Below are positions 1-44,068 of a stretch of DNA of 64,000 bases, piece by piece. A program made the position numbers and the translations under genes. Each line of letters starts with the position of its first letter. The stretch's first letter is position 1. The notes below the pieces were generated by a model. It saw only the letters and a program-made list of their open reading frames with translations, ran no database searches and was not told the origin of the DNA. This stretch comes from Raillietiella orientalis (lineage: Eukaryota): assembly GCA_036172245.1 (NCBI GenBank), contig JAYWIR010000007.1, positions 248,001 through 312,000 of the forward strand, written 5' to 3'.

Positions 1-1368
1 CCGAGTCCCTTTGATGGACTTGTGCGTTCCACGTCGTGATGGTGGTCTAGGCCTCTGACGGTGGAGCGCATGGAAGTTCAGCTGCGATGCCGAACATTGG
101 CCATCGCAGCCAAGCTGTTGAGCACCCCCTGGTATGTTCCTGACCGCCTCTTCGCCAGACGTGCATCCGGAACGTGAGGACTCGCATCTCTTCTTTTATG
201 TCGTTGAAGGAAGACAAGAAGATGCCACCTTCTCCTTGGACGAGTAGCCACCCTGGCGAGGGAGAATACATGGATGATCTGCAGCCCCGTCAACTCCAGC
301 GCACGGCTGGATGAAACAGTTGGCACGTGGGCTGTAGTGAATAAGAGGAGCAACGAGACATGGAATAGCCTGCGACGCGGCCGATACGCCCGCTGCACTC
401 TACGCGACGTCCTGGAGTGTCCAGCCAGAAGCACGTGGGCAGAGACGACCTGCCTAGCGACGGTGCTGCCCTTCCTACGTAGGACCCTCGTTAGCAGCCC
501 GACGCCGAGGTGGCAAGTCTCTTGCCGTATCGCAGGCAGAGAAAAATTGTTGAGCGGTTGGACAATGGGACAGCTCGCAGACGCCACAACCCAGAGCGTC
601 CTTCAGCAAGGACTAAGAAATGGGGTGAGCTGCTCGGCATCAGGACGGATGACCTGAAATGGCCCCCAGTGATAACCCAAACAAGGATCCTTCCCCTAAA
701 ATTTCAAGATACCGCGCTTATGCTGTTGCTCTGGGGACTCCCCTGCAATGCACGCCGCCACCACTGGACACGGGGAAGTGTGAACCCAAACTGTGCCCGG
801 TGTGAGGAGCGGGAAACCCTCCCGCAGCTTTTAGTTGACTGTGCTGCCCTCCGGTCCCTGTGGGAACGCTTCGGTTCCACTTTAGGTTTCCTGGAAAATA
901 GGCTTCTTAGAGACGTTTTTCGGCTCCTCTTCGTGTGGGACGCCCTGCAGCCAGCCGCTGTAATAGCAGCTCACTGCTGCGTACGCGGTATTGTGGCAGC
1001 TTGGAGTGGATCCGACGAAGCAGAGGATGTTAGCGGAAGGCATGCCATGGAGTATGCAGTTCGCTTTCTGCGAATAGCATCCCGATGGCCCCACCTGGGA
1101 AATCTGTACCAGGACCTCGTCGGCATCCTGCAAAGGATGGAAGCTCCAAGCAACGGACAGTGATCCCTTCTTGGCCCTCCAAATGACAGGTGTTTCTACT
1201 TTTTTATTTTTTTTTATTTTTGTTCTTTCCCTAACCCCATCCGTTGACGTGGAGTCGGTCAGTGCACTGACCACCCGACAGCTCCATAGAACCATTGGCC
1301 GCAGAGGGGCCTTCTACCGCAAATACTGTTAGTTTTTCAATAAACGCCCCGGCTTGACAGGGTGAAAA
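1..1368 (+). mobile_element. L1/Tx1-clade non-LTR retrotransposon, 3' part (ORF2 C-terminus with zf-RVT, 3' UTR, terminal hairpin); copy A
   Basis: ORF 510..1163 contains the zinc finger NPNCARCEERETLPQLLVDC..LW. It is homologous to ORFs 37911..38333 and 38755..39606. A T-rich 3' UTR follows, ending in AATAAACGCCCCGGCTTGACAGGGTGAAAA (1339-1368). Confidence 0.85.
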
Positions 1369-3600
1369 CGTAGAAACAAACGCTCCGCACCGCCCCCGTC
1401 ACCCTGCCAAGGACAAGGAATGCTACTCCGGAGGTATTCTGGGAGCCTGACCTCCAATGGAGCGTCCCGCCTGCGCGAACTGCCAGATTGGCCGCATGCT
1501 GTTCGGAGAAAGCGTGAATCTCCTGCAGCAGGGCCAGAACGAAGTCGCGCAAGACGTTAGCAACCGATCGCCTCTCATCGCTGTCGTCCAGCCCGTTGAC
1601 GTTCCAACAGGCAACTCGGACGCGACGAGAAGATGCGAGACCGCGCATCATTGCTGCGGACATGGAAGGTGCGTTCCTCCACCCGTCCGGCAAGGCATCA
1701 ACAGGGAGCACGACGGATAGGTGAGCGCGAGCGCACCCTGTCTCCGCCGCGCCGCACGCGGCTGGCTCGGTGGAGTACAGGACCATTGCCTCGGGCTCCG
1801 AGGAGCATCGGGAACCGTTCCCGCCATCAGGCTTACGCCTGGAAAATTTGTCCTCGCGTCTGTCCGGGTTGCACCGGGCTTTCGCGCGCTTTCGCGCTGG
1901 CGCCCGCATCGCAGTCGGAATGCCGCGCCGCGCACGAGACCGGCGTTTGCCCTGCCTTTTTGCTTGCTGGCAGTTCGATGCTGTCCCAGCGTTGGCGGTG
2001 CGTGCCGCCGATTCCTTAGCCTCTTTCAAGACTCTCGGAGTGTCGACCACGACGGCGTACGAGACTGCGGCTGTTGCCATTTTCGGCGCCCGGTACTGCC
2101 ATTTTACCCCACCAATCTTCATTGTGGGGAAGCGAGAAGACCTCTTCTTGACTACGTCCTCCTTTTTTCTGCTGCCCACCAAGGTCTATGCAGCGTCGCG
2201 ATTCTCGCGAGTTCCCTCGCTGGACAAGGGATGCTCTGCAGTGCCCTTCGTCGCCGCAAAAGGTTCCGCTTTCGCGATCGCGGAATGGAGCTCCCTCTCC
2301 TCCTTTGCATTTTGCTGCTCCTTACCGGAAGGAGAACGCAAGGCGGCGGAAAGACGTAAACTCGTACGAGTTTTCGCTGCTTTACCTGCGGAACGGGTCA
2401 CCATACACGACTTGCCTTACGCAAGATGAGGGGTGCGCGTCCCTCATTGACGGCTGCGGCAGAATTTCCGCGAGTGCCGCGGCCCTTTTGTTCAGGGACG
2501 GCGACAGACGCCGCAGGATTTATGACACCGCCCTTCGCCTGCAGCGTAGCGCCAGGCCTCTCCTCAGGGCGTTGCGGCTGTTCACCCTTCTGCACGAGCT
2601 TTCGCGGTTCCTTGACCGCTGAAACGCCCGCGGGGTCTTTCGTGGCAGTGCCACGTTCCGAGCGTACCGGGCAATTCTTGCCCGCCGACTGGACAGCAAT
2701 ATTCGACGCGGGCGGCGTATCTGCGGGGCGATTTTGCGCCCGTCGTTTACTTCTCAGCTCGGCGCACTGATTAATTAAGTGGCCGAGCATTTTGCAGTAA
2801 CGGCAACCACGCGTGGGGCACTTTCGCGGACGGTGGCTCTCCTTGCCGCGGTTGCCGCATGCCGACTTCTAGCCGACCAACCGCATAAACACGACCGCGT
2901 CACCAACTTTCATTTCCGCAAGCAAGTCAAACCATTTATTCATGGTGACTCGCGCCGTGGCGAGTCCGCAGTGGAGGCTCGGAAGCTTTTTCACTGGGTC
3001 GACATGCCTCCATCACGCGTGCACCGTGGTATGGAACTCGAGCGCCCCTATTAAATCGCTGTCACTGATTCCCGGTTGGATGCCCGAGAGTTCGAGCACG
3101 ATCGACTGGTCCATCGCAGCAGGAACGACTTCCTTCCCACGGATTTTCAGCGGGCTTCGAAGCAGGCGCTGGACGAGGATTGCATCCTTGCAGTGCACCT
3201 CCCAATGTCCAAGCGCGCTCACTGGCATCGAAGCCAGAAGATCGCTCTCGCGGACCCGTTCCAGCTCGCTCCACAGACGGTCACCCGTCCCATCTGCAGC
3301 GAAGGTACTCACCTTGCAGCAGAGCGTAGGCTTGTAGCCTTGGGCAAGGAATGCTTGCAACTCTGCGACGTCTGCAGGCGCGTCGTCGGCTGCCTCTGTC
3401 TTCACGATAAAGGGAAGTCTCTCCGGCAGCGAGACCTTCAGCCTGCCCCTAATAGGACTAGGAATCCGGATACGTTCCACACACTCCAGGGAAGAATGAG
3501 CCGGTTCCAGTTACCACAAGGAAACAAAACACTGCTCACGGAGACAGAATACAGGCGAGCAGCGCAGCAAAGCACGTGCGCGCGTTTCAAGAGTTGGGTT
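1369..3600 (-). mobile_element. L1/Tx1-clade element, 5' part (ORF1 with two CCHC knuckles, then start of APE endonuclease), disrupted; copy D
   Basis: ORF1 3013..3480 is homologous to 57085..57600. Knuckles CGNRGKESHRPRKC and CRYCKMLGHLINQC lie at about 2765-2860. APE motifs VACWNVNGL, LLQEIH and GVAFLV are in 1337..2182. It is truncated at 1369 by the 3' end of copy A; the 5' boundary is approximate. Confidence 0.8.
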
Positions 3601-5009: not shown

Positions 5010-6200
<1,191 letters not shown>

Positions 6201-9200
6201 TCTTCATGGAATCGTGCCTTGGAGCTATGGTGGTGGTCACACACAGAGCGACGAGTCTCAGTTGCTTTTCTTGTCTTTTGCTCCTTGATGGTTTCCAATG
6301 GAAATGTTTTTCCTTTTTTGTACCATCACACAAGGTCGCTATTTTGCTTTTATCCAGTCTCACGATTTCTCACCACATTTTAGATCATCTTTCACACTTG
6401 AACCCATTTCTCACAGATGATATGGAGGTGTCGGACACAGACGTACAAAATCGAAGTTTTTTCGCATTTCGTTTCGGAATGCACGTTTCCCAAAAAGGGA
6501 AAAAAAAAAAGAAAGGTCAACCTCCGACAGAGAGGTCACCTTCACATGCCTGAAGCCAGGCGGGAATTTTCTCGAAAACGAAAATGAATGCTCGACTGGA
6601 GAAAGCTGCCCTAATAATCCTCATTACCACCAATTCACATAAGTCTTCCTCCTCACTTTTTCGTACCCACTATTCATATTGGAGTACCTACTTCTATTTT
6701 ATGAACAGTAGCTTATTGAAAATTCATGCGTAAATATTTCAACCCCGAATTCTTTTAGAATGAATTAAAAAAAAAAATACATCTTTGATAATTGAAAAAT
6801 GAGAAACACTCAATTCACTGAGAATAATAATCCGCAGTGCGAAATAAAATCGATCCTGATTTCCGTGATTAAAATGGAGCTTAATAGAATCGACGTTCGT
6901 TCACGACGTGTGTCAGGTTTCCACAAACGTGAGATTCTTGCCCTCAAGACATTTTCCGAAAGTCACTCTTTTTCATGAGCAGAGCGGGAAGGATAATCGG
7001 TCTGCTTGATCCAAACAGGGATGCTGCATGCTTTTTTTCATATGTGGAATGTTTAAAGGGAAACCTGATTGAAAATGCACAAACCCACTTGTATTGTACG
7101 GATTCTGATGACTGAAAGTCTGTTCTTCATTCCCAGTTCTGACCTTTCCCATTCAATATGCGACTGATCCTTACGAAACTTGAAAGAAATGAGTGAACTC
7201 GCTTTCACAGGGAAACCAGCAATCTACCCATTGCGAAACCGTAGGAATGCGAAAAGTGGCAGAGTGATTCACGACGTGCTCAAAGCCTTCCTCCGAAGCA
7301 GACTTTTTCCGCTCGACCTCGATCCTCGGACTCTCGTTGCCTCAGGTGAGGTCGGCCGTGCTTTTGCAGCCTCATCGTGAGATCTCCGTGTCGCGTCGAT
7401 GTTCTCGCGAAGATCGGCTGCCGAGGAGACGCGCCATTCCTCATCAACGTTCTCCCTTTTTTCCCGCACTTTCTTTTTTTGGGGAGCATTCAACCAGCGA
7501 TTTGCAGCCTTCGCTGCTTGCCTTATGTGTAGCTCTCAAACGGCGGCTTTTTTCCTACGGCGTTGTGTGATTTTTCTCTCTTTTCTGTTTGGTTGCGAGC
7601 TCGGTGTCCCTCGTGTGTCCTCATGCGCCCGTGCACGTAGCAGTAGCGGCATGCGAGAAACACTTAATCACGTGGTGTCCCTCTTGACCGCATTCCCCGT
7701 AGGCGCGCTGATGCCCCGCGTACCGCAGGCGGACAGTCGCTACCTCCATCTGTGGCCGCGTGGACATCTCGCGGCGATTTACCACAGCAGCACACACGTC
7801 GCAGAGATCAGTTGCATCGGCGCTATCGTCTCGGCCTGACGGCAGTTGGAGGCTCACGTCGTCCCTGAAAGGGTCACCAAAAAAGCCGACACGTGAACGG
7901 CTGCCAGGTGTAGTCGTCGGAAGGAAGAAGTGTGGTACGACGGCTCCGTCCTCCTACGCCGTTCTGAAAGCAAGGTGAGGCCGAACGGAATGAACCCTGC
8001 TACCAAGGTATCCTGTATATTTTTCTATTTTTTCGTAAATGTATTTGTGGTACCCTGCTTTCGGTTCCCGATCTTCGGTGTGACCCAACTGCGTGTCAGG
8101 GACCGCTTCCCTCGAACTTTCTTGCCCATCGTTTCAGGACTTTGCTTCCAGATAGCTCGTTCTCTTTTTGGAAAAATGGTCCCGGCGCTCCCGAGTGCAA
8201 AGTAACGCGCACTTCGGCAAGCTTGCATTGGATGCCTTTGTAAGACATTGCGGGGTTTATCAACATTCGCAGTGAGTGGATGATAACAAATTTTTCTAGG
8301 ACAGCAATGACTTTGTGGTTCATCCTTTGCTCCACTTTTCCACTCAACCGAACCACGAACGACTGGTCTCCTGCCGAGAAGTATTTTACGTCCATGAATC
8401 ATTAGCAGCGTGTGCAGCAAATTCTGCGTCAGGAGGGCGTCTTTGCACGGCCCTTTTCGGATGTCGCTGCCACTCGTTGGGATGAGCGAGTCTAACTGAC
8501 CTGCGTGCTTTCAGATGCTCTCTTGAGTGCACCCTCGGAGTGGAACAATATTGCACGTCGATAGTCTTCCTTCACGGTGGGATTCACTCGAGATGACCCG
8601 CAGCAGCTGAAACACTCGCTGTCTGCTTTTCTTCCTGGAGAGAAAAGGTATTTGTGCAGACCTCATTCGCCCTGTGGGCACAACGTTACATTCGAATCGT
8701 ATATGTTCTTTGAGACCACAACACGGTGATGTCGATGTGAGGGGAAGGTTGTTATCGATCGGCCGTGTGCTGTCAAAGAACACTGGCATGCAGTGTTCAC
8801 GCCCGTTTTCACCTTTGGTTCCAAGCTTCTTTCTTCTTCTTCTACCTATACATTCTACCTACTACCTAAATACTTCCACCTATATCGATTCGTGCAGGTC
8901 GACATACTTGCGTTTGATTGCCAATGCACGCCAGTTAACATATACCAAGTTAGATCGAGGACTTGATCGTTTGGTTAGACAACCTTCCCTGGTGTTGCGC
9001 AACACCCATCAGTGCAAAAAGGCCATCCACTGAACGCGTTCAACCTCCTTTGAACAACGAATGGATGGCTCCTTCATTAGGACAAGCCCACCAACGTTCA
9101 GTCCCGGTGAACGTCGAGAGGGAAACAGGGAGCAACGCTCTACCCCGATGATCTCCATGGCCCAGGTGAAGGCGGCAAAGTCTCACGCCTTCTTCAAACC

Positions 9201-10622
9201 CTGCGCATAAGAGTTTCCCCTCGGCAAAAGCTTGAGCGAAGAATCGGACTCAACTCTCAGGGAAGGACAGGGGTCGGCGTAACCACGACTGGTTGCAGAA
9301 ACGAAAGCACGAAGGGTGAAAACACTGATCCTGAAGACGAAGTGACCTGCGCATGGATTACTGGAAGAGAAAGCAAGAGAAGGAAGCTGCGTTTGAAAAG
9401 AGCTTGCCGAGGCACGCCCACCGCGGATTCAGCAGGCAACATCGGAATGCAACACGTGGCGATGGCTGCTGCGGAGCTGCGCTCAACTCAACTGCCATTA
9501 TCCCGTGAATGGATCGTTTGGGAAACTGAAAGTACACCACGTGCAGGGTCTGCAGCAAAGATATGGCAGACGAATTCGAGGTCCAAGCAAGCCAAAAAAC
9601 TGTCTTCCGCTACTGTTCCTCGGGGGCAATCGGGAATGATTCTCGGAAACACTCTCCTCATTGTGTTGAATCGAAGGAGAGTCACGACGAAGTGACTCAC
9701 CCTCGATTCAACACAGGGTGAGTCACATTCCAGGGGGTCCACACGGAACATTCACATTCTCTCGAACCGTACTGTGAATGATTGAGCCCAACCTACAAGG
9801 AGATTGTCCGAATATTCTTCTTCTCGGCAACAACAACACCAGGGAGGAAGCAAGGATTCTTCGGAACCGCTGCCTGATCGCACCGTCAGCGAGCCGGCGG
9901 CAGGCTTTCCAATGAGTTCAGAAATGCCCCAAGCAAAGTCGCTGCATTCACGACTCCCTACAATCATAGACGTTTCTGCAGCGTATTTGGAAGATGGGAT
10001 TTCCCCAGAATTTGGCACGAAGAAGATGGCTAAATACTTCTTTTTCGTCATCAGAGACCAAAAGTGCTCCGGCACCGTAGATGATTTGAAGCAACCTTGC
10101 ACTCTTGTGAGTAACTGAGAAAAGGTGGCAGCTGAGAATTGCGATGCTCCGGGATCTGCTTCGCACGGAGGGGATTCTTTCAGATAAAAACACCTTTGCC
10201 GGAAAAGTTGCGCTTGCCTTGGGACTGCTGACAGTCGTCCGAGCGCTTTGTTTTAGTCCGGAAGGACAACCCATTCAAGGGTTCTGGGCGGGACGCATAA
10301 GACGCTTCAGAGACAGGATTTCATAAACGGAGACTCTGGACGAATGCCCTCACGAACGGTTAGATGAAGCTGGCGGTATAGCAGTCTGGCATCCCGTTAA
10401 CAACTGATGAGGAACACGCCGAAGCACTGTGAAAAAGCCTAATGAGAAAGGAGAGCCCGGAGCTGTTTGCAATTCCAAAGCTGTGCACACACGAAATAAA
10501 GCGACATTCACAAAAAGAGCGCCAAACTGCTCAGACGGAAGACGAAGCAACCTGTTGGACACGCGGTAATCACCTTGAAGGTTCTGCATGAAATGGAAGG
10601 AATGAGGATAAGCAGGTCTCGT

Positions 10623-10927
10623 TTTCACTCGGATGTGCCGGGGCATTTATTTCGAAAAATAAAAATACATTAATTTTTCCAGTGGAGAAGCCGAAGGCGC
10701 ACCACGCCAAAACAGCTTGCTGGTTGCCGGCGCTAGGCCGGAGAGGTCCTTCCGATGCGCGGGGGTTGGGACAGAAAAAACAAAACAAACAAAAAGTTTA
10801 AACACGGGAGGGGATAAATGTTTAGGGATGGGAGGGCAGGGAGGGGATCACTATGCGCCCGGAGAGGTCCTCTAGATCCTGTTCAGGATCTGGACAAGCT
10901 GTGTCCTCTGTGCGCCTAAGTTACGCC
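10623..10927 (-). mobile_element. Heavily 5'-truncated Tx1-like insertion with 12-bp TSD; copy E
   Basis: It encodes the last ORF2 residues (LGAQRTQLVQILNRI, compare LGAMTRDLEGILERM), then a T-rich UTR and the family terminal hairpin. The direct repeat AGCAGGTCTCGT flanks it at 10611-10622 and 10928-10939. Confidence 0.85.
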
Positions 10928-13900
10928 AGCAGGTCTCGTGGTGATTGAGAATGATCCCAGTTTCCACAGGAGAGCAACGAAGTTCCAGGAAGGTTATTTG
11001 GGTGCCATTGTGTTGCACTACGCATCAAACTGTCTTCCCCACATATCTGTTTTTTATGAACCTCAAGGAATTGACCCTGTGGGTTGGAGACGTGCCAGCG
11101 ACGGTGTGCTACATGCAGGAGCCTAAGAAACTTAGAAAACAGAGTTTTCCTTGGGCAGGGCACGATTCCACACAAACGCTCTAAATGAGCTTTGTTCAGT
11201 ATCCCCTCGACACAAGTGATCTTTCCTACCGTTGCCATAAGATGAGGAGCTCACTGATCACATAAGATGAAAACTGGAAGTATGAACTCCTCTCTGCAAA
11301 ACGCATCTCCCTATCAGAAATCTTTTATTAATCTAATGAAAGTAACCATCTCATTTTCCTCAACGCAGAAAAAACACACGCGAACGCGCAGAGAATGGGA
11401 GTTGGGCAAAGTATCGCTCAGTCAGTGAGTCCTCAACGTTGCCAACGAATTTTTCTTAGCCTCAGCTCGAAATTCAACGAAGCAAACAAATGTGCACTCT
11501 TAAGATTTACCGCTTTCAAGTTCTTCTGGTTGTGGGACCTCGCATCCCTTGCTCAGAAGTATCAAGATGTTCACGGCATGAAATTGCAGGCAATATACAC
11601 GCTGTGGGCACAGACACCACAAAGAAGGCGCCTCGCTGATCAGCTGACATTTGGGTATTCGAAGGCTCCTTCGAGGGCGGCAGCCCCACCATTTGCACAA
11701 TTTGAAAACGACCAACAATCCAAAAAAGTGTTCCAAAGTGGCTGCTTGGAAAGCACGCCGTGGAGTTCCCCACTCGGCGCTTTCAGCGGATAAGTTGCAG
11801 TGGTGCTCCACTCACGAGCCGTACACTCAAGTACACTGCGCAGTTGAGGATTCCATCAGGTCTTCATCCTTAATCACCATGATTTGTTCGGTGTGATTTT
11901 GCCTACAACAAAGTTACTATGCTCGTTGCCTGTGCCTTTGGCATTCCTGGTCCGCTGACCAGGCGACAAGCACTTGAAAACAGGCAGTGCCACTTTTGAC
12001 ATCAGCCGTGTGGATGCTCCCACGCATTGAGGGGTCTTCCCTTCGTGTCTCCATTCGCTCGAATTTCTCGAAATCGGAAAATTCGGATTTCGAGGACCTC
12101 GCCGAATTCGCAAGCATCGACTGCTTGTTTCCACAAGCATTAACAACACCGTCATGGCTTCCTCCGCCAAAGGAAATGAAGAAGGATGGACACTCTCCAT
12201 TTGTGTATCTTACGCCCTATGCCCACGTGCAATTCAAATATTCTTCCGGTTGGGAAACTTTGGTGTGAATTTTTCAAAATGACGAGTGATGCAGAATGCT
12301 AGTTTCGAACATGCAGTACCACACCTTCAATGCAGAGATCTCGAAGTTCCTCCGACCCTTTCCCGTTCTGGTCGCTGCTCTTCATTTCATCTTCAATTGC
12401 ACCCGCCTCATCCAAACGGAAGGTAACGTCCCGTTTCCTGTTTTGCCAATCTGTCATTTAGTCAACATTTCTCATGTGTTTCGTGGAAAGAACAAACAAA
12501 GCATTTCATTATTCGATTGATTGTAGAGGAAGAAATCGCATTCCTATGAGTGTCAGTGCTATAATCACAAGAAACGAACAAATGAGTTCTGTATTGCTGA
12601 AACACTTCCTGAGCTGTGTAGCAGAATGTCAGTGTCTCGCAACGTGATTAAACAAACGACACAGAACTTGCACAAAATAGGAAGGTACTCTATTCTCTGG
12701 AGTTCAAGTTACACGCAGTTTTCAAGAACACAGTGATTTCCTTTCAAACCCTTCATTTTTTTGAACGTTTTTTTTGTTTTTTCTGTTTTTTTTTTTTTTT
12801 TGGGTTTCTCTCCCATTGCCCTGTGCTGCAGAGTCGAAGCCCGCTTGTCTGGGTGCCAGTTCCCGGCAGCTTCCCGCTCCTGGTTCCGGGTCACGTGACG
12901 CAGGACCAAACGCCCGGCCACGCACGTTTCTGTTTCGTTTCCAAACCAACGAAGGCGTGACCGAGTGTCAACCAGTGAGACCAGTGCACACACGGAGAGT
13001 TGCTTGGCAAACCGTCTCCCGTTCGCATCCCACCTTCTGTTCGACCGCAGTGCCCGTGAACACCGCTGGTGGTGTCGCCCGGGCGTTCCGCCGACCGCAC
13101 CACACCGCTCCGCAATTGCTGCGACGCCTCTTCGCGGAGAAAGTGTCGAAGGAGGGCGCAGCAGTGAGCTGCGTTTGCGTCCAGGTGACCTCCCGCCATG
13201 AGGAGGACTCAGGATCGCGCAGAAACGAATCAACCACATGCGAAGGCGAATTTCGAAATTCGGAAGCACGATGCCCTCATGTGCCACGAGAAGTTTCCTG
13301 GGAAATCACCACCATCCGGAGACGCTCCTAGGAAGGAAGAAAGCATTCCACGACGCACCTCCCTCTTCACGCCCTCACGGCCCTTTTTTATTCCTTCCTA
13401 TTCCCCTTTTCACAATTCAGAAGCCGGCCTGCGTGCCAGTGCTCACCTCAAATTGACTTTCCCATTTCTGTGGCATCTGCCATATTTCGTGGAGGAAAAC
13501 ACTCCTTGCAGAACCTTTATTGTGTTCATTTGTTTTGCTCTGTACCTCACGGAGTCACCGTGAAACAACCGAATCACCAAGGTCGATCTGTGCACCAATT
13601 GAGTCAACTGAAGATTTCCAAAATCCACTCTCCATTTACGTGTGATGACTTTCTTCTCTTTCCCAGACTCCCCCCTCAACTGCAAGCTTCGCAATGAACC
13701 GGGAAGACTGAAAAATAGGTACGAACAGAGGAAATATCAGCTCGTGCTCCGTTCTGTCGAAGTACATAAAAGTTAGCGGCGCCATGTTGCACAGTGCCTG
13801 CAATCCGATTGATAAATCGTAAAATGCAGGTTGTGAAGCTGCACGTGGGTTCCTGGAGATGATGGGAGGTTCTTCTGTTTATGCGGTGCGCGTGATGGTG

Positions 13901-20235: not shown

Positions 20236-20950
20236 CACCCGGTTGCGCCCGGGGAATTTATTCCAAAAAACGAACGAACCAGACGGAAAGAGGGAAAGCA
20301 AGGCACAATGGGGAAAGAATTTCGATGAAGTGGGCTCCCTGCGACGCAGGTCGGGCACACCGAAAGTCCGGAACGAAAGGAAAAACGTTTCAACGACTAC
20401 AGAATGGTACCAACGGGAGAGGAGCCTTTGGCCACGGCCTTTTCTTGTTTTCGGAACCGGCGTTCCACGCCGGACATCACCTTCCTCACTTCCTTCAGAT
20501 GAGGCCACCTGGCAGCCGTCCACACGTTGACGTCGTCGATTTCAATGAACTCTTTAGGAATTGCCTGCGACTCAAACTGTCGGAGGGTCGTGAGGATGGC
20601 GCGAATGCAACAGATCGTTGCGGTCACCGCACCTAACGAAGGGCCGCCACACGTGAAGAAGCGGCGCATGATGTGGATGGCCGTGTGCCCCTGCGCTTAC
20701 AACAGACCGAGCTGCATAAAAGGGCGTGGTGGCCAGTGAGTTTGCTTGACGTGGCCCTGCAACGCAATATCCACTGGACACAATGGGGTTACGTGCCCGC
20801 AACGAAGATCCATTATCGACTGAGCCACAGCGACCGCGGCACGAAAAAGGCTCGCGAGCACGCAGGCGCGGTTTGCTGCCCGCGGACTGCCGCTCGCAAT
20901 AGCGCCATCTGTCCTCATCTTCAGCTGAACATTGGTGTCGCTGCCGTGAC
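20236..20950 (-). mobile_element. Tx1-like 3' fragment with internal deletion; copy F
   Basis: RRFFTCGGPSLGAVTATICCIRAI...ESQAIP...RWPHL matches 43100..43528 and 35979..36330. NPIVSSGYCVAGP matches [13 protein letters not shown] at 43.7 kb. The terminal hairpin is at 20236-20262. The 5' edge is approximate. Confidence 0.8.
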
Positions 20951-32511: not shown

Positions 32512-33119
32512 GACAAGCAAATAAAGTTAGACAAAACAACGCAATCCGCTGTTCTGGACCTGTCTTGTGGATTGGTGGAAGTTATTGAAGAAACTGCAAG
32601 TGCCCACAACTATGTGGTTTACATGAAAGAATGAAATATTAGAATTTGGTCATTTTTATATGCCTGGGCATGTACCGGCAAATGTAAGTTTTAGCTAGCA
32701 CATGCAAGAAAAGAATAAAGACTTAATAATAGACAATTAGTACAGATTGAATTTTTTTGATTTGTAAGTTGTTGTTAACATTTATAAGTTTCAAGTAATG
32801 GAAATGATTTATTAGCATACCCCAAAACGGTATCAATTCTGTAGTCAGCTGTGCGTGTGTATTTATATGTATGAGTAAATATTGAGAATACTGTCACTAT
32901 TTCTTCAAAAGCACCCCTCGCCGTCTTCCCAAGTTAAATCTCCACCTTCCCTTTAGTTGCAAGAGCTGGTGGAGCTGATGCTCCTCAGAAAGTGCTGTCA
33001 TCATGTCACCTAGTCAGCGTAGGATCAATTTTCATGATGCTTGCAAACCATTCCCCAAATTAGTCCATCTGCACTACTTCTCGTCATGGTAAAGAAGTCT
33101 TGATATGAGACTGATTCAC

Positions 33120-36100
33120 TCCCCTTGTTCTTCTGGAAGATGACCGGAAAAAAGGGGAGGGAAGACCGCCGCCGCCGGCGTCCAAGAGCGCCGAGGCATC
33201 AGCAACCCCGGAAGGGGAGGAGAGCACGGCAAGCTGCTGCATCTCGGAGGAAGACCTCCCTGAGGAGGTAGCAACTCTCCAGCAAACAAGGCAACAAAGT
33301 AGGAGGGATGCGCCCAGAAAATCAGGACGCAACTGTCCAAAAAGAAGAGAAGAATGAACTGAAGCAACCCATCCGTCCTGAAATGGCGCAAGTCCTGTCG
33401 TTGATCCGAAAGATTGGGTTCTCATCCTGGAGCATCAACGGATGCACGAACTCGACGAAAAGGAGTTACGTGAAGTGGCTCTTGCGGCAGGAAGACATCT
33501 GCTGCCTAGAAACGCAGTTCATGACGCTGGAAGCACGCTAAGAACATGGGAGAGATTTGCAAGTGGACGTCCACTTCAACTAAGGCTCGAACAACTGTAA
33601 GGGTGTCGCCATCCTTGTGAAGCAGACCCTCGCGCCAACCATCCTGGGGATATCCCACGGATGGGCAAGCTGCATCCTGGGCCTGAGGATGGCGTGGTCC
33701 GGAAGCGTCCACCTGGTTCCTGGTGAACGTGTACGGACCACTGTTCAGGAACAAACCCTTCTCGAATGCCCTCGTGGAGTTTATAAGGAGCAAGAGCACC
33801 CCGAAGGACGGCGTCGTGATCGCTGGCGACTTCAACGTTCGCCTGGATGGCAGTCTCCACGGCGCCTACCTGCACATGATGGAAGAACTCGCCCTCCTGT
33901 ATACGGAGGCGAACATGACTGGCATCAACCACGTCATGTATTTGGAAGCTCTCGTCAACCATATCCAGGGGATCTGAGAACTAAACACCAAGGTCTCCGA
34001 CCATCCCCTGCTTAAATGGAGAATGGCATCGAGGAATCCCAGGAAGGAAAACGCGGTGCCCTGGGTGGCGCTCATTTGCATGCCCGAGTGGTATGAGCAT
34101 TTCCCCCCGTACAAGAGCATCGTGGAGACCATCCTGGCCACGACGAACATCCCGAGCGTGGATGACTGGGATACCCTCAAACACAAGATCCGTATTTTCA
34201 AAGCTCCAATACGGCGACCGGGACCTCCTCGAGGAAGCCTACAGGGGGATACACGAACACCACTCCTGCCTCTGCGTACTGGGAAGAGTATCAGAGGCGA
34301 TTCCTCGATAGGAGCGTCAAGAAAGAAATCGGACAGCTGGAAAAGCGAAACCTGGAGACGGATATCTTTCACGTCCGTTACCAGGATCAGATTGCAGAAC
34401 CTCGGAGCAAGTACTCGATGCCTACCAGCACCACCACTCGGCGTTGTTCAGGAAAAGGAATGTGGACCCCGGAGGCCAGAGTGGATTCTCCACAACATGA
34501 AGAAACGCCTGGCCTCCCACGAACAACGAGAACTGAGTGGAGACTTCACCGCCGAAGAGGTCAAGGCAGCGTTCGGAGGGCCGCGCATAGAACGTGGCGG
34601 TGTGTCCGTCACGCACTATCAAAGGCTGCCAGTCTCGTGCATCTGTTCCGTCAGCTGCTGGACTACATCTGCCACAAAGGACGACTGCCCGCTTCCTTCC
34701 ACCGGAGCAGGATGAGGCTGCTCCCGAAGAGCGGCGGAGACCTCGGTAATGTCACCCAGTGGAGATCGATATCCATCCTAAATTCGGATGCGAAGTGAAT
34801 GCCGAAGACCTATGCCTACCTGCTAAAGAAATCGCTGAGATCGGTGTTTTTTTTGCGCGCAAACGTGTGCCGTGCCAGGCAGACGCATGTGGGATAACCT
34901 GAAGTGCGCCCATGCTCTCCTGGTATACAGCCGTATCCTGGGCAACGACCCGGTGCTGGGCTTTACAGACATCGAGAAGACCTTGGACTCGGGTGGACTA
35001 CGCCATGCTGCTGAAGATCCTGGGGCTTCGAAGCGAGATTCGTGCAGTACGTGGCACACCCTAGAGGAGGCCAACTTCACGATCAGCGTCAACGGGTTCA
35101 CGTCGCACATCCATGTGGAAAAGGAGTCCGCCAGGGTGATACCCCGAGCTCCATGCTCTTCGTTCTGTACATGGAGGCGGAGAGTACCTCCGTCCACCAC
35201 GAGAGTCAGCTTAAGGGAATCACCCTGGGAGAAGAAGAGATGCGTGGTGTTGCCATCACGCACCTGGCCTACGCCGACGACCTGCTTTTCGTGATGTCGG
35301 ACGAGCGGGATCAGAATGCGTTCCTAGACATCGTTCAGGTCATGGAGGGCGGCCTCGGACTCAAAGTGAACCCCAGCAAGTCCCATCTGCACGACATGGA
35401 ATACCAGACATCACCGTCCTTCATGCCCATGGCTTCCGGACTGTGGACAGCACTTCGGGATACAAATCGGCAACGAAACACCAACCCTGGAGCTGCAGTA
35501 ATGGTCGGCCATCCTAGGCAAGCTGCACGAAGAATCCAGCCAGTACGTTGGAACCTCCTCCTCGCAGAAGGACAAGGCCAAACTCTGGAACGGGGTGATG
35601 GAGCCGATATCTAGAGGAACCTGGTCCGGTGCGTTGGAAAACCAAAGGCAAAGCTGAAGTACCTGTGTCGCCCGCGGACGGAAGGAGGTACTGGCATGCG
35701 CGACACTACGAAAATGCCGTCAAGCTCCAGGACCTCAGGCGTCTGGTTCGGATCGGGATGCCGGCTTGGGAATCCTGACGTTCTAGAGGATCGAACTGCA
35801 AATGCAACTACAGATACTGGCACTTCGTGCCAAGCTATGGATGACTTTCTGGTGTGCTCCTGCGCGCCTGATGCCGCGGCTCTGCGCCTGAGTAGGACTG
35901 GTTTCGTTGCTGCCGCATGCCCTTTCCGCCACTTGAGGCAATTCCTAAAGAGGTTACCGAAATCGCCGACGTCAACGTATGGACGGCTGCCAAGTGGCTT
36001 CATCTGACAGAGTTGCATCCCCGAACTGTGGAAGGTGCGGAGCAACGGAATCGCTTTCGCACCTGTTGTTTCACTGCGGTGCCCTCCGAGGACTGTGGCG

Positions 36101-36571
36101 GAGCCTGTGTTCGGGTCTCTTGCATTCGGGAGACACCGCAATGAACTTGATGTGCCTTTTCTTCACGCGAAACGGCCTTTCGTTAGGTGCGGTCGTCGCA
36201 ACGATCTGTTGCTTCTGCGCCATCGTCACAGCCTGTTGTGTGTTAGAGTCGTGAGCGGCCGCAACAGAGGTCACCAGGACTGCAGCCTGCAACATGAGCA
36301 TGGCTTCCAGGTGGCCTCACATTAACGTGGAAGTGAGGAAGGAGATCTCCGGCATTCAACGCCGGTTCTGAGAAGAAGGAACGGCCGAAGCTAAATACCC
36401 ATATATTTTTGTATTCATTTTATGTTCTCTCCCTCCCGTCGAGGGCTCTCAGTATGCCTGACCTGCGTGTCGGAAAGCCCTTCCTTTGAACTTCTGTTTT
36501 CTTTGCCTGGAAACTGTTTGCAGATTATTTCCATTTTTTTATTAAACGTCCCGGCGCAACCGAGTAAAAAA
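33120..36571 (+). mobile_element. Tx1-like LINE with most of ORF2 (APE-RT-zf-RVT), multiply frameshifted; copy G
   Basis: APE motifs: SWSING, DICCLET, VNVYGP, IAGDFN, SDH. RT motifs: LLPKSG..WRSISILNSDAK, QTCAVPGR, GVRQGD, LAYADDL, LKVNPSKS. Zinc finger CGRCGATESLSHLLFHC. Terminal hairpin at 36541-36571. Confidence 0.92.
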
Positions 36572-37451
36572 GAACTTAGACATCTGATCCGGATCTTCAG
36601 CGCATGAGAAGAGTGGCCGTTTGCGTTCCTTTGCGCCTTCGCAAGACTGGTGCATGGAACCGACGGCGTCATTTCCGTCATGGCGCTCACCATGGACTAC
36701 TAGAAGAATGTGGACCCAACGTGGCCACGAATCCAGCGTCTCATATGGACCCTGAAATTGAAAATCGTGCCAAGGAGCTATGGGGCAAAGAGCTCTGCAA
36801 GGTGATTCCGCTATTCATCAGCGTCCCTTGCGATACCACAGCATGGCTCAACAAAAACATGCCCATGGAAGAATGCGAGCGACTATCGACAAGTGTGGCT
36901 ATCCAGGAGCGACGAGTCTCATATAAAAGGAAACTGGAGGATAACGCACAGAACACGCAAGCCTTGACAAGACTGAAGCTCTGGTCAGAGGCGTGGCACT
37001 CTGTGGTCCAGGGTGAACCCCTAAACAAACAACTTAAGGATACCGGGAAACGTCACACCATCCGAAGCGATGGAAACGATGAGGTCCACACTGGGCAACG
37101 CCGCATTCGACCCACAGACGATCGGGACAGTCCTGTCGAGATTCTCGTTGTTGTCGGACGTTCAGGATAGCCTCTTGATGTTTTACTACGGAGGCATCCT
37201 GTGCGGCACGAAGCTCCAGCACCGGACACGGAATTCCGACAACGACCAGTGTTCAGCGTGCGAGTCGATCGAATGCGACTTGCACATCTACACCTGCCGA
37301 ACCCTCGTCCGGGATTGGAGAGTGGTGAAGCAGGCTTTAGAAATGGAGGACACGTCAACGCTTGAAATACTACGAGGCCTCTTCGAAGACGAAGAAGGCG
37401 TTCCCCGCTATGACCCTACCGTACGGGTGATCGTTGCCTTCTTTCTGAGGA
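36572..37451 (+). mobile_element. Fragment of a second, divergent L1-clade ORF2 C-terminus
   Basis: ORF 37070..37486 has LLMFYYGGIL...CSACESIECDLHIYTC..W (zf-RVT-like). It is bounded on both sides by the 3' ends of other Tx1 copies. Confidence 0.6.
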
Positions 37452-40070
37452 TTTTCACCCGGGTGAGCCGGGGCTTTCATTATTAAAATTTTTTACAAAG
37501 AAAAAAAAATTCCATAATAAAGTCTTTTTTTCTTGTCATTCTAATTTTTTTGGTTTTTCAGTCAGAACACACGTTCCAATTGTCTTGGGGCACTTGTCCT
37601 TATCGACCCGCAGGCCGGTGAGGTGCACTTCATTGGCGCAGGAGCGGGAAAAACAAAAAAAAAGAAAAACGCCTGGGGGGACAATGTTCATTGGGAGTTT
37701 TCACCCGGTCACGCCGGGGCGTTTATTAAAAAAAAACACAGTACATCTGCGGTACTAGGCCCCGCTACGGCCAATAGTTCCTGGGACCTGCCAGGAAGCC
37801 GGTTCGCAGACCGGCTTGACTCTCCTCGGCAGCGGAAGGGGGGGGGGATAAAACAAAAAGAAAAATAAATGAAATAACAAAAAGAAACTATTTGGGGGGC
37901 CGGGAAGGGATCACAACCCGCTGGAGGAAGAGACCATCCTTTCCAGGATGCCCTCGAGGTCCCTCGTCATAGCTCCCAGATGGGACCAGCCGATCGCGAT
38001 TCGCAGGTAGCGACCCGCGTGTGCGATGGCGTCCCTGTCGCTGCTTCCTCTGTTGGCTGCGCTCCACGCGGCGACAATCCCTCGGAGGCAGCAGAGCGCT
38101 GCCAGGGTTGAGGCTGGTGGCACGAAGAGGAGTCTCACAACGTCTCTGGGGGTACTGCCAACCGGCATAGGGAGGGTCGTAGCAAAACGTTCCCACAAGG
38201 GCCGGAGGGCAGCGCAGTCCACTAACAGATGGGGGAGGGATTCCTTCTCCCCGCACACTGCACAGTTCTGTCCCACGTTCCCCAACGTCCAGTGGTGGCG
38301 TCTCGCGTTGCAGGGAAGACCCCAGTGCAACAACAGCAGCGCCGTTTCCTGCCACTTGAGGGGGAGGATGGATGAATCAATAAACGACGGGGGCCACTAT
38401 AGGTCATCCGGGATGCCAAGCAGCTCGCCCCATGTTCGTATACCACGCGGGTGAACGCTTGGGGTCGCGGCATCTGCCAGTTCCCTCATGGTCCATCCGC
38501 TTAGATCCTTCTCCTTGCCCGCTATCCTGCAGGAGACTTGCCATCTCGGCTTCCGGCTGTTCATTGGGAGAGAGGAGGGAAGGGAAGGGATCACGGTGAG
38601 GAGGCCTCTGCATCTGGTTTTGGATGCGAACAAGTGCCGGCAAAGGTTTTCTAAGTCGGCGCCAACGGGAAACCTTCTCCAAGGAGTTGGCTGCCCAGTG
38701 GATGGCATTCCGAGTTTTTCGTCCTCTCCTGGTTTCGGTCTACTTATGCGAAATTCAGCGTATGCAGCAGAGCACTACTACACACGCGGGGGCTGGCATG
38801 GCGTCCCGCATCAGGAGGCGTCGAAAAACGTTTTTTGGGTCGCCAACCGGAATGTTCAGGATCGACGAGAGTCGATCCCACATCTGGCGGAGGGCAATAT
38901 ACTCGATAATTAAGTGCGGGAAGGTCTCCCTTTCTCCGCACTCTGTGCAAGTGGCATCCACTCTCCCTGAGGCCCAATGAAAAAGGCGTGCTCTGCATAA
39001 CAGTCCCCAATAGAGCAGGAGCAACGCTGTCTCCTGCCACTGCAGGGGGAGGGTGCTGTTGTCCCAAGACGCTGGGGGCCTCTTCACCTCCTCCGGAGGT
39101 ATTCCGAGCAGCTCGCCCCAGCGCACAAATCCATTCGGCGGGACACTCGGGGTTGTAGCGTCCGCTAGTTCCCGGGACGTCCACGCCTTCATTAGTTTTT
39201 TCCTGGCTCCGATGAGGCAGGACACTTCCCACGATGCCTCCTCTTGGCTGTCCCTGGCTTCTCTGAGGGAGGGCAGCACGAGGCAAGGGGGGTGAAGGAA
39301 TCCCACAGAAGTTTTTGTGGGTTGTTTACGATCTCCTGCAGGGGCTGGCCAGCGTGAGTGCCTCGGCGGAGGCAGGAGAAGTCCACATCGCTGGAGCCGT
39401 TGATTTTTGCCCACGCGGAAACTGACTCCTGAAGCCAGGCAGTACAGTTGGCAGAGAGTCAGGAGATCCACGCGTTGTTCCTCATAACTTCCATCTGGCG
39501 CAGCTGATGGCCGCAATAGCCCAGGCTGCGTTCGTATGCTACGAGGATCGAAGACAATCCTTCGCATCCTGTCGCTCTGCTGGCGAGGAATCGTGCTGGT
39601 TCTCACGAAGCCGTTTTCCAGAATTTCGCCGCAAGGGCAAGTCTTTGAAATTGGAGCAGCCGCTCCATGCGCTCCACCGTAAGGAGGCTCAATCCACCGT
39701 CCCTGCGTGGACGGTGGATTGGACCAAAGTCTTTTAACCGGATACGGAACTTCGCAGTGCCCCAGAGGGCTTTCCTCGGGGGGTCCTCAATCCGTTTTTT
39801 CATCACGGGTGGGCGGGGCAAACAAAAAGTAGGGGGCGAAGTAGGTGGGCCGCGAACGCGTTCCACACCGCGACCCGTTCCTGCAAGTAAAACTTACCGC
39901 TCTGGAACGGTCCGATCGCCAACTCTACCCCTTGTAGACGGTCGGACCAGGCTTCTGCTACGCAGAAGTCCCCCAACGGAACTTCAAGGTACTTGATGTA
40001 CCTGCCCGTGAGGACTCCAAGAGGATCCAGTCCGGTCGTTTGGCTCTGGCCGGACGGCCGGACTAGAAAG
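37452..40070 (-). mobile_element. 5'-truncated Tx1-like element (RT thumb to 3' end) interrupted in its 3' UTR by copy C; copy B
   Basis: KYLEVPLG at about 39980, RPRRDGGL at about 39700, and CTECGERETFPHL at about 38930. The ORF ends at about 38590; the UTR resumes at 37697 and ends in the family hairpin at 37452-37484. Confidence 0.85.
37698..38557 (-). mobile_element. 5'-truncated Tx1-like element nested in copy B with 13-bp TSD; copy C
   Basis: ORF 37911..38333 has CAVCGEKESLPHLLVDC, and the terminal hairpin is at 37698-37727. The perfect direct repeat TGTTCATTGGGAG lies at 37685-37697 and 38558-38570. Confidence 0.92.
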
Positions 40071-40199: not shown

Positions 40200-40960
40200 G
40201 CACAAGCAAGAAACGCATCTTCTGCAACTGTTGATACAGACGGTGTAATGTCGGATTCTAAGTCCAACGCCTATACCTATATCCCTTCCTTCCTTGACAG
40301 TGACTTGTGTACGATCTTAATGTGCATAAACTACTTTCTTTCTTACTTATCATCTCTGGCTTCCCTGGTTCCTCAGTAGTTGCAAAGTCTTGGTTAGTCC
40401 AGGATGATTCCATAGACCTCACAATCCCAGATAAACGGATCACCTGCTATCAGCGACGCCAAGTGGTCAGGATGATGCATTCCATGCAGCGAATGTGCAG
40501 GACATGCGCCCTGATCAACAAACCGGATCAAGGTTGGGTCATGGATTGTTGTGTCTCCTTGCACCCAGCCTCCAGAAGTTTCCTGCAAAGATGCGAGCTT
40601 CTCCGATTTTCAGATTGGAGATCCATCCATCGTGCACGATGGAAGCTGTTGCTGCTGAACGGAAACACGAAGCCTCCCGGCTTCTTCGAATAATGCAGGA
40701 GATGCACCTGATCGGTATTTTGAGGGTTCCTCCACTACATTACAGATCGTCATTACTTAGTTATCTCTTGCGCCCTTCCGCAGCTCCAGCAGAACGGTCT
40801 ACGTAGATGCGTTCATCAGCGGGACACCTGGAGTTTGGGACCCAAAGGATGGAGTCCTGGCCAGACTAGGCATTCCTGAGCTACACGCTCAACTCCTCAA
40901 AGCCACAATGATCGCAGCTGTAATTCTTACATCCAGGAACATCTACGCAAGACACATCGA
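40200..40960 (-). mobile_element. Possible decayed Ty3/gypsy pol remnant (RNase H then integrase zinc-binding region)
   Basis: KNYS...ELSVAQECLVW..HPLGPKLQV resembles RNYS..ELLAV...W.HYLLG.KF.V. It is followed by NHPGLTKTLQLLR, resembling GHPGxxKTxxL. The order fits but the sequence is heavily decayed. Confidence 0.35.
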
Positions 40961-42684: not shown

Positions 42685-44068
42685 TCACTTCGAGCTCGTG
42701 TACTTGGCGGCCGCTTTCGTGCCTTAAGAGACGGTCTGCTTGGTCAGTTCTCCAGGCAACAGCGGGCCCACCGCCGTCTGCACCTCCCGGATGGTGACTT
42801 TCACCTGGGTGAGCCGGGGCGTTTATTTCTAAACTATCTCGAACAAAGTTCCCAGTCAAAGGGTACCGAAGAACGAAGGGAGGGAACCCCAACATGCAGG
42901 TCGCAACACACACCTGGAACGGGAGGGAGGAGACCACAAATAAATACATAAAAAAATATAAATAAAAATGTGGGGGAGGGTTCGGCCGTTCCTTCTTTTA
43001 GAACCGGCGTTGGATGCTGGAAATCTTCCTGATGTCTTCTGGAAGATAAGGCCACCTGGCAGCCGACGTCTTGTTCCCGTCGGCTATTCCGGTGACCTCT
43101 CATAAAATCGCCTGCGACTCCAACTGGCGGCGGGCCGTGACTATGGCGCGGATGCAACAGATCGTTGCGACGACCGCACCTAACGACAGGCCGCCTGGAG
43201 TGAAGGAGCGGCGCACCAAAATCTTTGCAGTGTCCCCTTGGTACAAGAGCACTGAAGCCAGCCTCTGCCACAGTCCTTGGAAGACACCACAGTCGAAGAG
43301 CAGATGTGGGATTATTTCCGCTGCTCCGAGTTTGGCGAGGCAACGCCCCTGGAAACAATGTTCGCGCGCTGGTTGCAATGGAAGCCCCAATGCACCAGCA
43401 AAAGCACTTCCTATTTCCAAAGAAGGGGGAACACTGAAATGTTCACGCACGAAGGAGGGACCACAAGTTTTTCGGGGGGCACACTGACGAGTTCGCTCCA
43501 CCGAAGGAGTCCCTTGGGAATATGACAAGGCGTAGCAGCGTCTGCCAGCACGCTACTCCTCCAGCCGCCCATGGGTCGGGTTGTTCCTGCGATTGTGCAG
43601 GCGACCTCCCACCTTGCCGGTAGGCAACTGTCCTCTGCCCTTGGAGCGCTACAACAAGCGCTGCGGCAAGAAATGTGGCGTCCAGGCTGGTTCACAAGTC
43701 CTGGTCCTGCAACACATCCTCCACTGGACACAATGGGAAAAGGTACACACAACGGAGTTCCACAAGGTCGAACTCCGTTGCGTGCACCGGTCGGTGTTCC
43801 CGGCTGCTGATGGTGTGCGCTGGTTGTAGTGCGGCAGGCGGGATGCCTCCGAAGTGATGCGCTCGAAGATGTTCACGGAGCTGTTCATGATCGACATGGC
43901 CTTGCTCGAGATGCCCGTGTCCGGGTGCACCTGCTTCAGCACTTTGTAGATGTAGATCGTGTAACTTTCCTTCCTCTTCCGCTTCTTCTTCTTGTCTCCT
44001 TTCGGGATGTTTTTCTGAGCCTTACCAGCCTTCTTCACCACCTTCCCACTTCCGGACTTGGGAGCCGT
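42685..44068 (-). pseudogene. H2B: Histone H2B pseudogene split by a Tx1-like insertion
   Basis: The 5' half (44068-43797) reads [35 protein letters not shown]...[17 protein letters not shown]...HYN..ISSRE, with the start codon reading ACG. The 3' half (42798-42685) reads TIREVQTAVGPLLPGELTKQTVS*GTKAAAKYTSSK*. Confidence 0.95.
42799..43796 (-). mobile_element. 5'-truncated Tx1-like element inserted in H2B; copy H
   Basis: It has the ORF2 C-terminus (RWEVAC..LADAATP; PHLLFDC..LW; LSLGAVVATICCIRAI), a T-rich UTR, and the terminal hairpin at 42799-42827. A diverged TSD lies at 42784-42798 and 43797-43811 (11/15 identical). Confidence 0.9.

Follow-up and report, generated by a model that had tools for sequence, protein, structure and literature searches.

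Conserved AATAAA-plus-palindrome block at the 3′ ends of L1-like LINE copies in Raillietiella orientalis DNA, a candidate module for specific 3′-end recognition

Template choice by the reverse transcriptase (RT) of long interspersed nuclear elements (LINEs) underlies cis-preference, parasitism by short interspersed nuclear elements (SINEs) and retrogene formation. The L1 clade of LINEs is generally regarded as 'relaxed', recognising its template by poly(A) only. A 64-kb stretch of Raillietiella orientalis DNA (GenBank assembly GCA_036172245.1, contig JAYWIR010000007.1, positions 248,001 to 312,000 of the forward strand; hereafter the window, with positions counted from its first letter) raises the question of how the RNA 3′ end may be recognised in an L1-like family that carries hardly any poly(A). 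A first, sequence-only reading of the window had listed seven termini of divergent Tx1-like LINE copies, all ending in AATAAA and a small stem-loop, and had proposed this hairpin as a signal for RT recognition or 3′ processing. Here we find that eight termini share a conserved block at their extreme 3′ ends, that the block is followed by 0–6 A's and abutted in two copies by perfect target-site duplications (TSDs), and that the family has L1-like coding capacity. We tentatively favour the interpretation that the block is a 3′-terminal cis-acting module of a multi-lineage L1-like family, and that recognition of the 3′ end is specific ('stringent'-type) rather than poly(A)-only.

The seven terminal sequences listed previously were all recovered at their positions and on their strands, and one further terminus, c8, raises their number to eight. 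All copies are related and come from this one window. They are given below with a ninth segment, c9, which is the body of the element that ends in c5 (UTR, untranslated region; A4 and the like, number of A's; arms, the two halves of the palindrome).

c1, 29..1368 (+): 5′-incomplete L1-like copy, running off or near the window start, retaining the C-terminus of ORF2 and ~205 nt of 3′ UTR; terminal module 1329–1368 (+), with a T-run, AATAAA at 1339–1344, arms at 1348–1352 and 1358–1362, TG at 1363–1364 and A4 at 1365–1368
c8, 7796..8201 (+): terminus 8162–8201 (+); degenerate hexamer AAAAAT, arms at 8181–8185 and 8191–8195, TG at 8196–8197, no A-run, CAAAG next
c2, 10623..10927 (−), terminus to 10622: 305-bp 5′-truncated copy with the ORF2 end and 3′ UTR; A tail of 3–4 nt
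c3, 20236..20700 (−): perfect stem, 6-nt loop, no A-run, GCCATC directly after GTG
c4, 33000..36571 (+): longest copy; hexamer ATTAAA, arms at 36550–36554 and 36560–36564, then TA, then A5
c5, 37452..37684 (−): 3′ UTR and terminal module, 233 nt, of an older element; hexamer AATAAT, arms at 37468–37472 and 37458–37462, then A4
c6, 37698..38557 (−): 860-bp 5′-truncated copy nested in c9/c5; perfect stem, A4 tail
c9, 38571..~39970 (−): ORF2 C-terminal body of the older element whose tail is c5
c7, 42799..43650 (−): AATAAA, arms at 42814–42818 and 42804–42808, the 3′ arm being CCAGG with one mismatch, A3

The pattern CCCGG-N4–7-CCRRGT matched seven times in the window against 0.29 expected matches (~24-fold), and none of 100 dinucleotide shuffles reached seven. 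These matches are six of the previously listed copies together with c8 (8181–8196 (+)), while c1, which reads CAGGGT in its 3′ arm, falls outside the pattern. The detection of c8 by this search was accompanied by a covariance-model score of 45.3 bits and by a tblastx link to c7. The covariance model was built from the eight termini and run on both strands with filters off; it returned these eight alone, at 39.5–53.5 bits, as is expected by construction, and the next best match reached 15.5 bits (E = 0.43). As only the training termini were recovered, the window seems to hold no further copies or orphan tails. A scan of the whole window with Rfam gave no match at gathering thresholds, and the region 37440–37930 gave two sub-threshold bacterial matches only.

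The block stands out against the remainder of the 3′ UTRs. The last 26 nt, from the hexamer to GTG, show a mean pairwise identity of 0.77 over all 28 pairs, whereas four upstream segments lie at 0.37–0.49, near the shuffled level of 0.31–0.44, in agreement with the earlier remark that the upstream UTRs barely align. The terminal motif is the only block common to all copies. Where alignable, the copies share ~70–75% of nucleotides (blastn), and their ORF2 C-termini have ~40–57% of residues in common (tblastx). For instance, c1 and c6 are 69.7% identical over 894 nt, with tblastx homology reaching 1339 nt from the c1 end, and c3 is 75.5% identical to c7 over 237 nt and 70.3% to c4 over 263 nt. 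Through such nucleotide or translated homology c3, c7 and c8 are tied to c4, and c2 is placed by an ORF2 stop context in common with c1, c6 and c9. From these comparisons, we regard the copies as old lineages, not decayed twins. A block conserved to this degree, next to UTRs near the shuffled level and to ORF2 C-termini as diverged as these, points to selection in the master elements.

Within the block, the columns without variation comprise TTT within the T-run, two of the hexamer's A's, CCCGGC, a single C in the 3′ arm, and GT. Only 5 of 80 stem cells depart from the consensus, compared with 13 of 32 cells at the four variable loop positions (Fisher p = 3e-5), so that the loop, as had been noted from the sequence, does vary and is about six times more variable than the stem. 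The palindrome arms are better conserved than the hexamer. Could such similarity arise without function, by common ancestry or by chance, from a segment that has decayed less than its neighbours? The copies are only eight and related, and short GC-rich palindromes fold easily; even so, we hold this to be very improbable, given the contrast in identity between block and upstream UTR, the difference between loop and stem, the ~24-fold excess of the pattern, and the presence within the block of CpGs, the sites that should be lost earliest were mutation alone at work. The observed-to-expected CpG ratio is 0.92 for the window overall, 0.73–1.16 in the copies and 0.63–0.81 even in AT-rich stretches, indicating no CpG depletion.

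The block is terminal. After GTG, the A-runs of c1 to c8 measure 4, 4 (or 3, with the last A assigned to the TSD), 0, 5–6, 4, 4, 3 and 0 nt, so that all eight carry 0–6 A's and the earlier statement of almost no poly(A) was borne out. Beyond the A-run no conserved sequence was observed, and the eight 3′ flanks have no sequence in common; for this reason we rejected the possibility that the motif represents the target sequence of an element with site-specific insertion. A perfect 13-bp TSD, CTCCCAATGAACA, flanks c6 at 38558–38570 and 37685–37697, and a perfect 12-bp TSD, ACGAGACCTGCT, flanks c2 at 10928–10939 and 10611–10622. In both copies the TSD follows directly after GTG and 3–4 A's, which establishes the motif as the true 3′ end, as had been claimed, and implies that the tail was short from the outset or disappeared while leaving the duplication intact. 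The TSDs start with CTCCC and (A)CGAG, neither target is A-rich, and T or C precedes in the empty-site copy (n = 2 targets); with such starts, the target primer would be unable to anneal to an A tail. The traits of mammalian-type relaxed L1s, namely long poly(A) and an A-rich TSD start, are thus not seen here, the A-runs being 0–6 nt and both TSDs starting with a non-A base.

An abutting TSD had been claimed for three copies, of which these two stood and the third was not found. Two candidates for c4 were rejected: exact 9–10-mers at 31.69/31.82 kb lie in AT-rich DNA 1.2 kb beyond the GC boundary of c4, and a gapped match at 33057–33071 is at chance level, its score being reached by 893 of 2000 shuffles. 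The 5′ boundary of c4 itself was set by a jump in GC content alone. No TSD was found in searches for c3, c5/c9, c7 and c8, and c1 extends past the window. The LINE homology of c7 stops at 43650. Since c2 is SINE-sized at 305 bp, its identity as a SINE was considered and rejected, because the ORF2 stop context is present and neither a tRNA nor an Rfam head was recognised.

The terminus at 37452–37484, which had been counted as an independent copy, proved instead to be a 3′ UTR, that of an older element interrupted by c6. The homology of c6 with c1 (blastn) ends exactly at the c6 TSD junctions, and tblastx reveals a second ORF2 C-terminal segment offset by ~675 nt; together with the TSD at both junctions, this identifies c9 and c5 as one element. 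Support for c9 comes from tblastx matches to c1 and c7 and from an ORF2-profile match at 38851–39018 (profile positions 1084–1139). The insertion point of c6 is a TC-rich tract with which the 3′ UTR of c9 and c5, another copy of the same superfamily, begins. Nested and convergent LINE ends cluster between 33.0 and 40 kb, where c4 (+) and c5 (−) converge with 880 bp of unassigned GC-rich DNA between them (36572–37451). By eye, an 11-mer, TCCTCAGAAAG, was noticed right after the A tail of c5 (37441–37451 (−)) and, inverted, just before the GC boundary of c4 (32982–32992 (+)); its orientation is wrong for a TSD, and the repeat may be due to chance.

A second potential structure, HP1, lies ~100–145 nt upstream of the terminal A-run (~100–115 nt in seven of the eight copies).

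HP1 in c6, 37799..37814 (−): CCGGT, loop CTGCGA, ACCGG, extendable to 8 bp
HP1 homologous sites: 1255–1270 (+), 10727–10741 (−), 20339–20354 (−), 36458–36473 (+), 42889–42900 (−), 8084–8099 (+) and 37603–37618 (−)

RNAalifold, applied to the last ~190 nt, predicted HP1 as a 5-bp helix. Paired cells amount to 82%, and three of five pairs have changes on both sides (6 cells). The covariation score of 0.464 compares with 0.299 ± 0.055 in shuffled alignments, none of 500 shuffles reaching it, and sliding the partner by 1–3 columns lowers the pairing to 18–41%. The stems differ by lineage, as in CCGGT/ACCGG (c6), CCGGC/GCCGG (c2) and CTGAC/GTCGG (c4), around a loop that is near CTGCG in six of the eight copies. 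In c3 the helix forms in a shifted register only, and in c8 it is largely broken. The covariation support for HP1 exceeds that for the terminal palindrome. Recognition hairpins of stringent LINEs have a variable stem and a conserved loop (PMC3472496), a pattern that HP1 displays and that the terminal palindrome reverses.

What reads the block? Its hexamer, preceded by the T-run, reads AATAAA in five of eight copies and ATTAAA in a sixth and is degenerate in c5 (AATAAT) and c8 (AAAAAT), and its distance to the A-run is 20 nt in c1, c2, c6 and c7 (AATAAA) and in c4 (ATTAAA), and 21 nt in c3 (AATAAA). This is the range in which a poly(A) signal usually lies from its cleavage site. The block could accordingly be a self-contained module for 3′-end formation (polyadenylation), made up of U-rich sequence upstream, AAUAAA and a structured spacer by which the cleavage site is fixed, and would then not be read by the ORF2 protein (ORF2p); transcripts would end at the element boundary without reading into the flank, and the short tails would result from RT starts where body meets tail or from later shrinkage. 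Such a module would account for the predominance of AATAAA, with the commonest variant ATTAAA in one more copy, for the invariant TTT before the hexamer, for the 20–21-nt spacing and for a terminal stem that does not covary. It leaves unexplained the tails of 3–4 A's beside perfect 12–13-bp TSDs, the conservation of the arms beyond that of the hexamer and the conserved HP1, and annealing of poly(A) is not evident at targets that are not A/T-rich. We consider polyadenylation without recognition by ORF2p rather unlikely.

Specific 3′-end recognition, the interpretation that we favour, would combine both aspects. The U-run and AAUAAA would direct cleavage ~20 nt downstream, probably right after the GUG that follows the palindrome, placing a small GC hairpin at the extreme end of the RNA. 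The ORF2p may then bind the 3′ module via the terminal hairpin, via HP1 or via both, and would start reverse transcription within the first few A's, with no need for a T-rich primer. Tails of 0–6 A's, TSDs of 12–13 bp and targets that are not A-rich would follow from this mechanism. The window data are alike for RT recognition and for 3′-end processing, and cannot separate these two roles.

Several observations weigh against this interpretation, most of them concerning whether the terminal palindrome acts as an RNA hairpin. That the stem is kept, as the sequence-only reading stated, holds for the 5′ arm, which is CCCGG in all eight copies; the 3′ arm is perfect in three only (c3, c5 and c6), and the other five have one mismatch each, including c2 (CCGAG) with its intact 12-bp TSD. 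Of the cells, 85% are paired as aligned in the 5-bp register, with one unpaired cell due to an alignment offset in c3, and 84% in a bulged 7-bp register. Covariation, which had been put forward as a check of the stem, was scored as pair counts on the eight-copy alignment and gave no compensatory change in either register (0 pairs). Single-sequence folds, with minimum free energies of −2.0 to −10.4 kcal/mol, are no better than those of dinucleotide shuffles (z from −1.80 to +0.38; equalled by 12–117 of 200 shuffles). Of the five stem changes, four replace G by A in the 3′ arm, giving a C·A mismatch in the sense RNA and a G·U or G·T pair in the antisense strand, so that paired cells number 39/40 antisense against 35/40 sense (95% against 85% as aligned), and the changes are distributed 0/40 in the 5′ arm and 5/40 in the 3′ arm (p = 0.055). 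The G-to-A pattern and the invariant 5′ arm suggest a constraint on sequence rather than on pairing alone. As for HP1, its pairs were counted on the very alignment from which it was predicted, and its compensatory changes follow subfamily lines and so represent few independent events. Neither a SINE nor an orphan with this tail occurs in the window; the covariance model found no partner on either strand besides the eight termini. All of the structural statistics, moreover, derive from DNA sequence of eight related copies in one window. The proposed signal therefore stands as to its conservation, terminal position, short A tails and non-A-rich targets, and falls short as to stem covariation and folding.

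These same observations bring in a different possibility, in which what is read is the sequence itself, or the opposite strand, and not a hairpin of the sense RNA. A protein could bind the bipartite site CCCGGC ... CCGGGTG, or a hairpin or palindrome could act in the first-strand complementary DNA (cDNA) or in the DNA duplex, for instance when second-strand synthesis is being completed. Such a role would fit the 5′ arm, which with the C next to it is invariant in 8/8 copies while the 3′ arm varies, the better pairing of the antisense strand and the lack of compensatory changes. The numbers behind the asymmetry between the arms are small, however, and G-to-A is a common mutation in any case; an extended register also shows a conserved G-U pair in seven of eight copies together with C-to-U wobble changes, which have meaning on the sense strand only. 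We know of no function of a cDNA-strand hairpin in LINEs. A reading by sequence or on the other strand appears improbable to us; as they stand, the eight sequences fit either strand and either mode, structure or sequence.

A more specific form of stringent-type recognition may be drawn from the two structures together, namely an animal L1-clade family in which the 3′ end is recognised through two hairpins, an upstream covarying stem with a conserved CUGCG loop and a terminal invariant stem between AAUAAA and the cleavage site, with reverse transcription starting in the first 0–6 A's at targets that are not A-rich. We put this forward as possible and somewhat doubtful.

The assignment to L1-like elements was examined through coding capacity. 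A recognisable RT is present in c4 alone of the eight copies (RVT_1, E = 8.9e-11, 35015–35614 (+)), and 26 long relatives cover c4 at 34643–35458 in tblastn. The layout of c4 (+) comprises remnants of an apurinic/apyrimidinic endonuclease at ~33398–33857, the RT at 34631–35458 and a zinc-finger region at 36003–36251; the endonuclease region 33398–33857 gave weak collinear matches (E 0.012–0.7) and an ORF2-profile match of 0.029. The ORF2 C-terminus is kept in c1, c6 and c9, the frame in c6 being open for 161 aa with CX2CX7HX4C. Matches to zf-RVT were obtained for c6 (5.8e-5), c1 (0.0024) and c4 (0.0061), all under the Pfam gathering score, and in an Atlas search 24 of 30 matches were zf-RVT clusters (best 0.97). 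L1-type ORF2 proteins typically carry such a CCHC motif C-terminal to the RT.

Searched exhaustively against proteins, the RT fragment had 159 matches at E ≤ 1e-3, the best at 38% identity, and it gave no matches when the search was restricted to longer lengths; a larger set from protein search comprised 522 relatives. Twelve long RT relatives were scanned, with RVT_1 in 12/12, zf-RVT in 6/12 and Exo_endo_phos in 4/12. Two full-length relatives align near end to end with human L1 ORF2p (1.9e-99 over residues 2–1171, and 8.9e-102). Among solved structures, the RT from the window matches human L1 ORF2p best (3.9e-4), with R2 at 0.08, in a PDB set that holds no RT of CR1, RTE, Jockey or R1. The RT, the C-terminal CCHC/zf-RVT region and the relatives that align to human L1 ORF2p support an L1-type nature of the elements in a broad sense, within which the Tx1-like label is tentative. 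Target-specific insertion, a trait of many Tx1 members, was not seen: the eight 3′ flanks differ throughout, and CTCCCAATGAACA differs from ACGAGACCTGCT (n = 8 flanks, n = 2 complete targets).

The window is otherwise a mixture of AT-rich host DNA and GC-rich repeats, with several recognisable features near the copies or apart from them.

1385–1600 (−): N-terminus of a LINE endonuclease on the strand opposite to c1, in an open reading frame (ORF) at 1337–2185 (−); Exo_endo_phos 3.8e-4, ORF2-profile positions 1–72 at 0.0072
5232–5696 (−): kinase exon, Pkinase 6.3e-15, with a CDKL-like activation-loop region, the CDKL name being read from the sequence
43807–44070 (−): fragment of histone H2B directly upstream, in element sense, of c7, covering residues ~2–90 with one codon missing and no start codon
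52152–53306 (+): intronless torsin-like ORF of 384 aa, Torsin 6.1e-5, with a predicted membrane segment and a P-loop
2675–3402/56747–57483, 44542–44832/60894–61177, 44645–44820/59971–60144 (inverted) and 12664–12728/24214–24278: other dispersed repeats, 70–83% identical, without the terminal motif

As 17 nt separate the start of the endonuclease N-terminus from the 3′ terminus of c1, that copy was apparently inserted into or beside another LINE. The H2B fragment matches Pfam Histone at 6.7e-11 and H2B entries of the PDB at 3e-37, such as 2pyo, which we take to be the Drosophila nucleosome, against ~1e-28 for vertebrate H2B. The order 5′-H2B/LINE-3′ would fit a chimeric retrocopy formed by template switching, but ~160 nt at the junction are unassigned and a search gave no TSD. 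For the torsin-like ORF, the nearest Atlas cluster is 'Torsin family 4', which is mostly chordate, and a word-indexed protein search gave no relative. Both this ORF and the kinase exon resemble host coding sequence. The lack of CpG depletion speaks against a typical vertebrate host, despite the chordate character of that cluster, and, like the H2B comparison, points to an invertebrate animal; the dinoflagellate spliced-leader motif gave no match. The ORFs of the other dispersed repeats gave no Pfam match, and Pfam recognised no family among 150 ORFs of 70–149 aa at 1–24 kb, leaving most of the GC-rich DNA in that part without an assignment.

In the L1 clade, known cases of specific 3′ ends have been limited to one lineage of maize and sorghum and to a single Chlamydomonas element (PMC3472496), and an animal L1-like family with such a module would be a third, independent data point, favouring the idea that recognition of a specific end is common in the clade and perhaps its original state. 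The compact module of ~40 nt with a second hairpin also lends itself to mutational tests. In the model of Ohshima, stringent recognition is the ancestral state of the L1 clade, and relaxation occurred in parallel in the plant and mammalian lines (PMC3472496; see also the review PMC3747384). If the two-hairpin system holds genome-wide and in assays, it would carry this order, stringent first and relaxed later, beyond plants and algae to animals, and would provide an L1 relative in which template choice is separable from poly(A). The mechanism is not a new kind, such modules being already described for the L1-clade LINEs of maize and Chlamydomonas; the contrast that had been drawn here with the L1 clade as a whole therefore needs tempering, as stringent-type 3′ hairpins are known in its monocot and Chlamydomonas members (PMC3472496). 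In the literature searched, whose scope did not include Repbase or Dfam entries, we found no description of an AATAAA-plus-palindrome end in an animal L1/Tx1 family. Among the marks of stringent-type elements, a 3′ end conserved across diverged lineages is present here; compensatory changes are absent from the terminal stem and present in three of five HP1 pairs.

Human L1 is the closest solved relative of the family's ORF2, the relatives aligning with it over residues 2–1171 (E = 2e-99). Insertions of human L1 have long poly(A) tails and TT/AAAA targets. The present copies differ in their tails of 0–6 A's and in that both defined targets are not A-rich. A conserved stem-loop near the 3′ end has been proposed for human L1 too (PMC5135761). 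In the Tx1 clade (Tx1L, Keno, Kibi, Koshi and Tx1-Mar), ORF2 is L1-related, and the members described insert target-specifically, into DNA transposons, small nuclear RNA genes or microsatellites (PMC4494074). Unlike the members described there, the copies studied here have 3′ flanks without a common sequence.

Outside the L1 clade, the 3′ ends of LINEs are, to our knowledge, specific as a rule. With UnaL2 and ZfL2 of the L2 clade, the present family would have in common a 3′-terminal stem-loop, which is recognised there by ORF2p, a precise initiation and no need for a long poly(A). It differs from them in clade and in its ends, which are AAUAAA and a few A's in place of short tandem repeats, and the need for the stem-loop is experimental there and inferred here. 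For ZfL2, binding of ORF2p to the 3′ stem-loop is reported (PMC4176376). SART1 of Bombyx, of the R1 clade, requires a 3′ UTR structure and still ends in A's, a mixed mode like the one proposed here; it belongs to another clade, is specific for telomeric repeats and has longer poly(A) (PMC3472496).

Closer parallels come from the L1 clade itself. In Chlamydomonas, L1-1_CR and SINEX-3_CR share a specific 3′ end of ~80 nt, which was taken as evidence for stringent recognition (PMC3472496). The present family is likewise L1-like with a specific 3′ end; it differs in that the evidence in Chlamydomonas is a tail shared with a SINE and both of those elements end in poly(A), whereas no partner was found in the window here. 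In maize and sorghum, the L1 lineage 'monocot 1a', or LINE1-1_ZM, has conserved last ~45 nt with a divergence of 0.144 against 0.570 overall, a hairpin with compensatory changes and the partners ZmSINE2/3 (Ohshima 2012, PMC3472496). The maize lineage has ordinary poly(A) repeats in addition to its partner SINEs, unlike the present copies in an animal host, with tails of 0–6 A's and no SINE in the window; and its stem varies with compensation while loop and flank are conserved, whereas here the terminal stem is conserved and the loop varies, HP1 alone being maize-like in this respect. In common, both are L1-clade elements in which the end of the 3′ UTR is far better conserved than the remainder, a small hairpin may form just before the A tail, and that end is interpreted as a site of stringent-type recognition.

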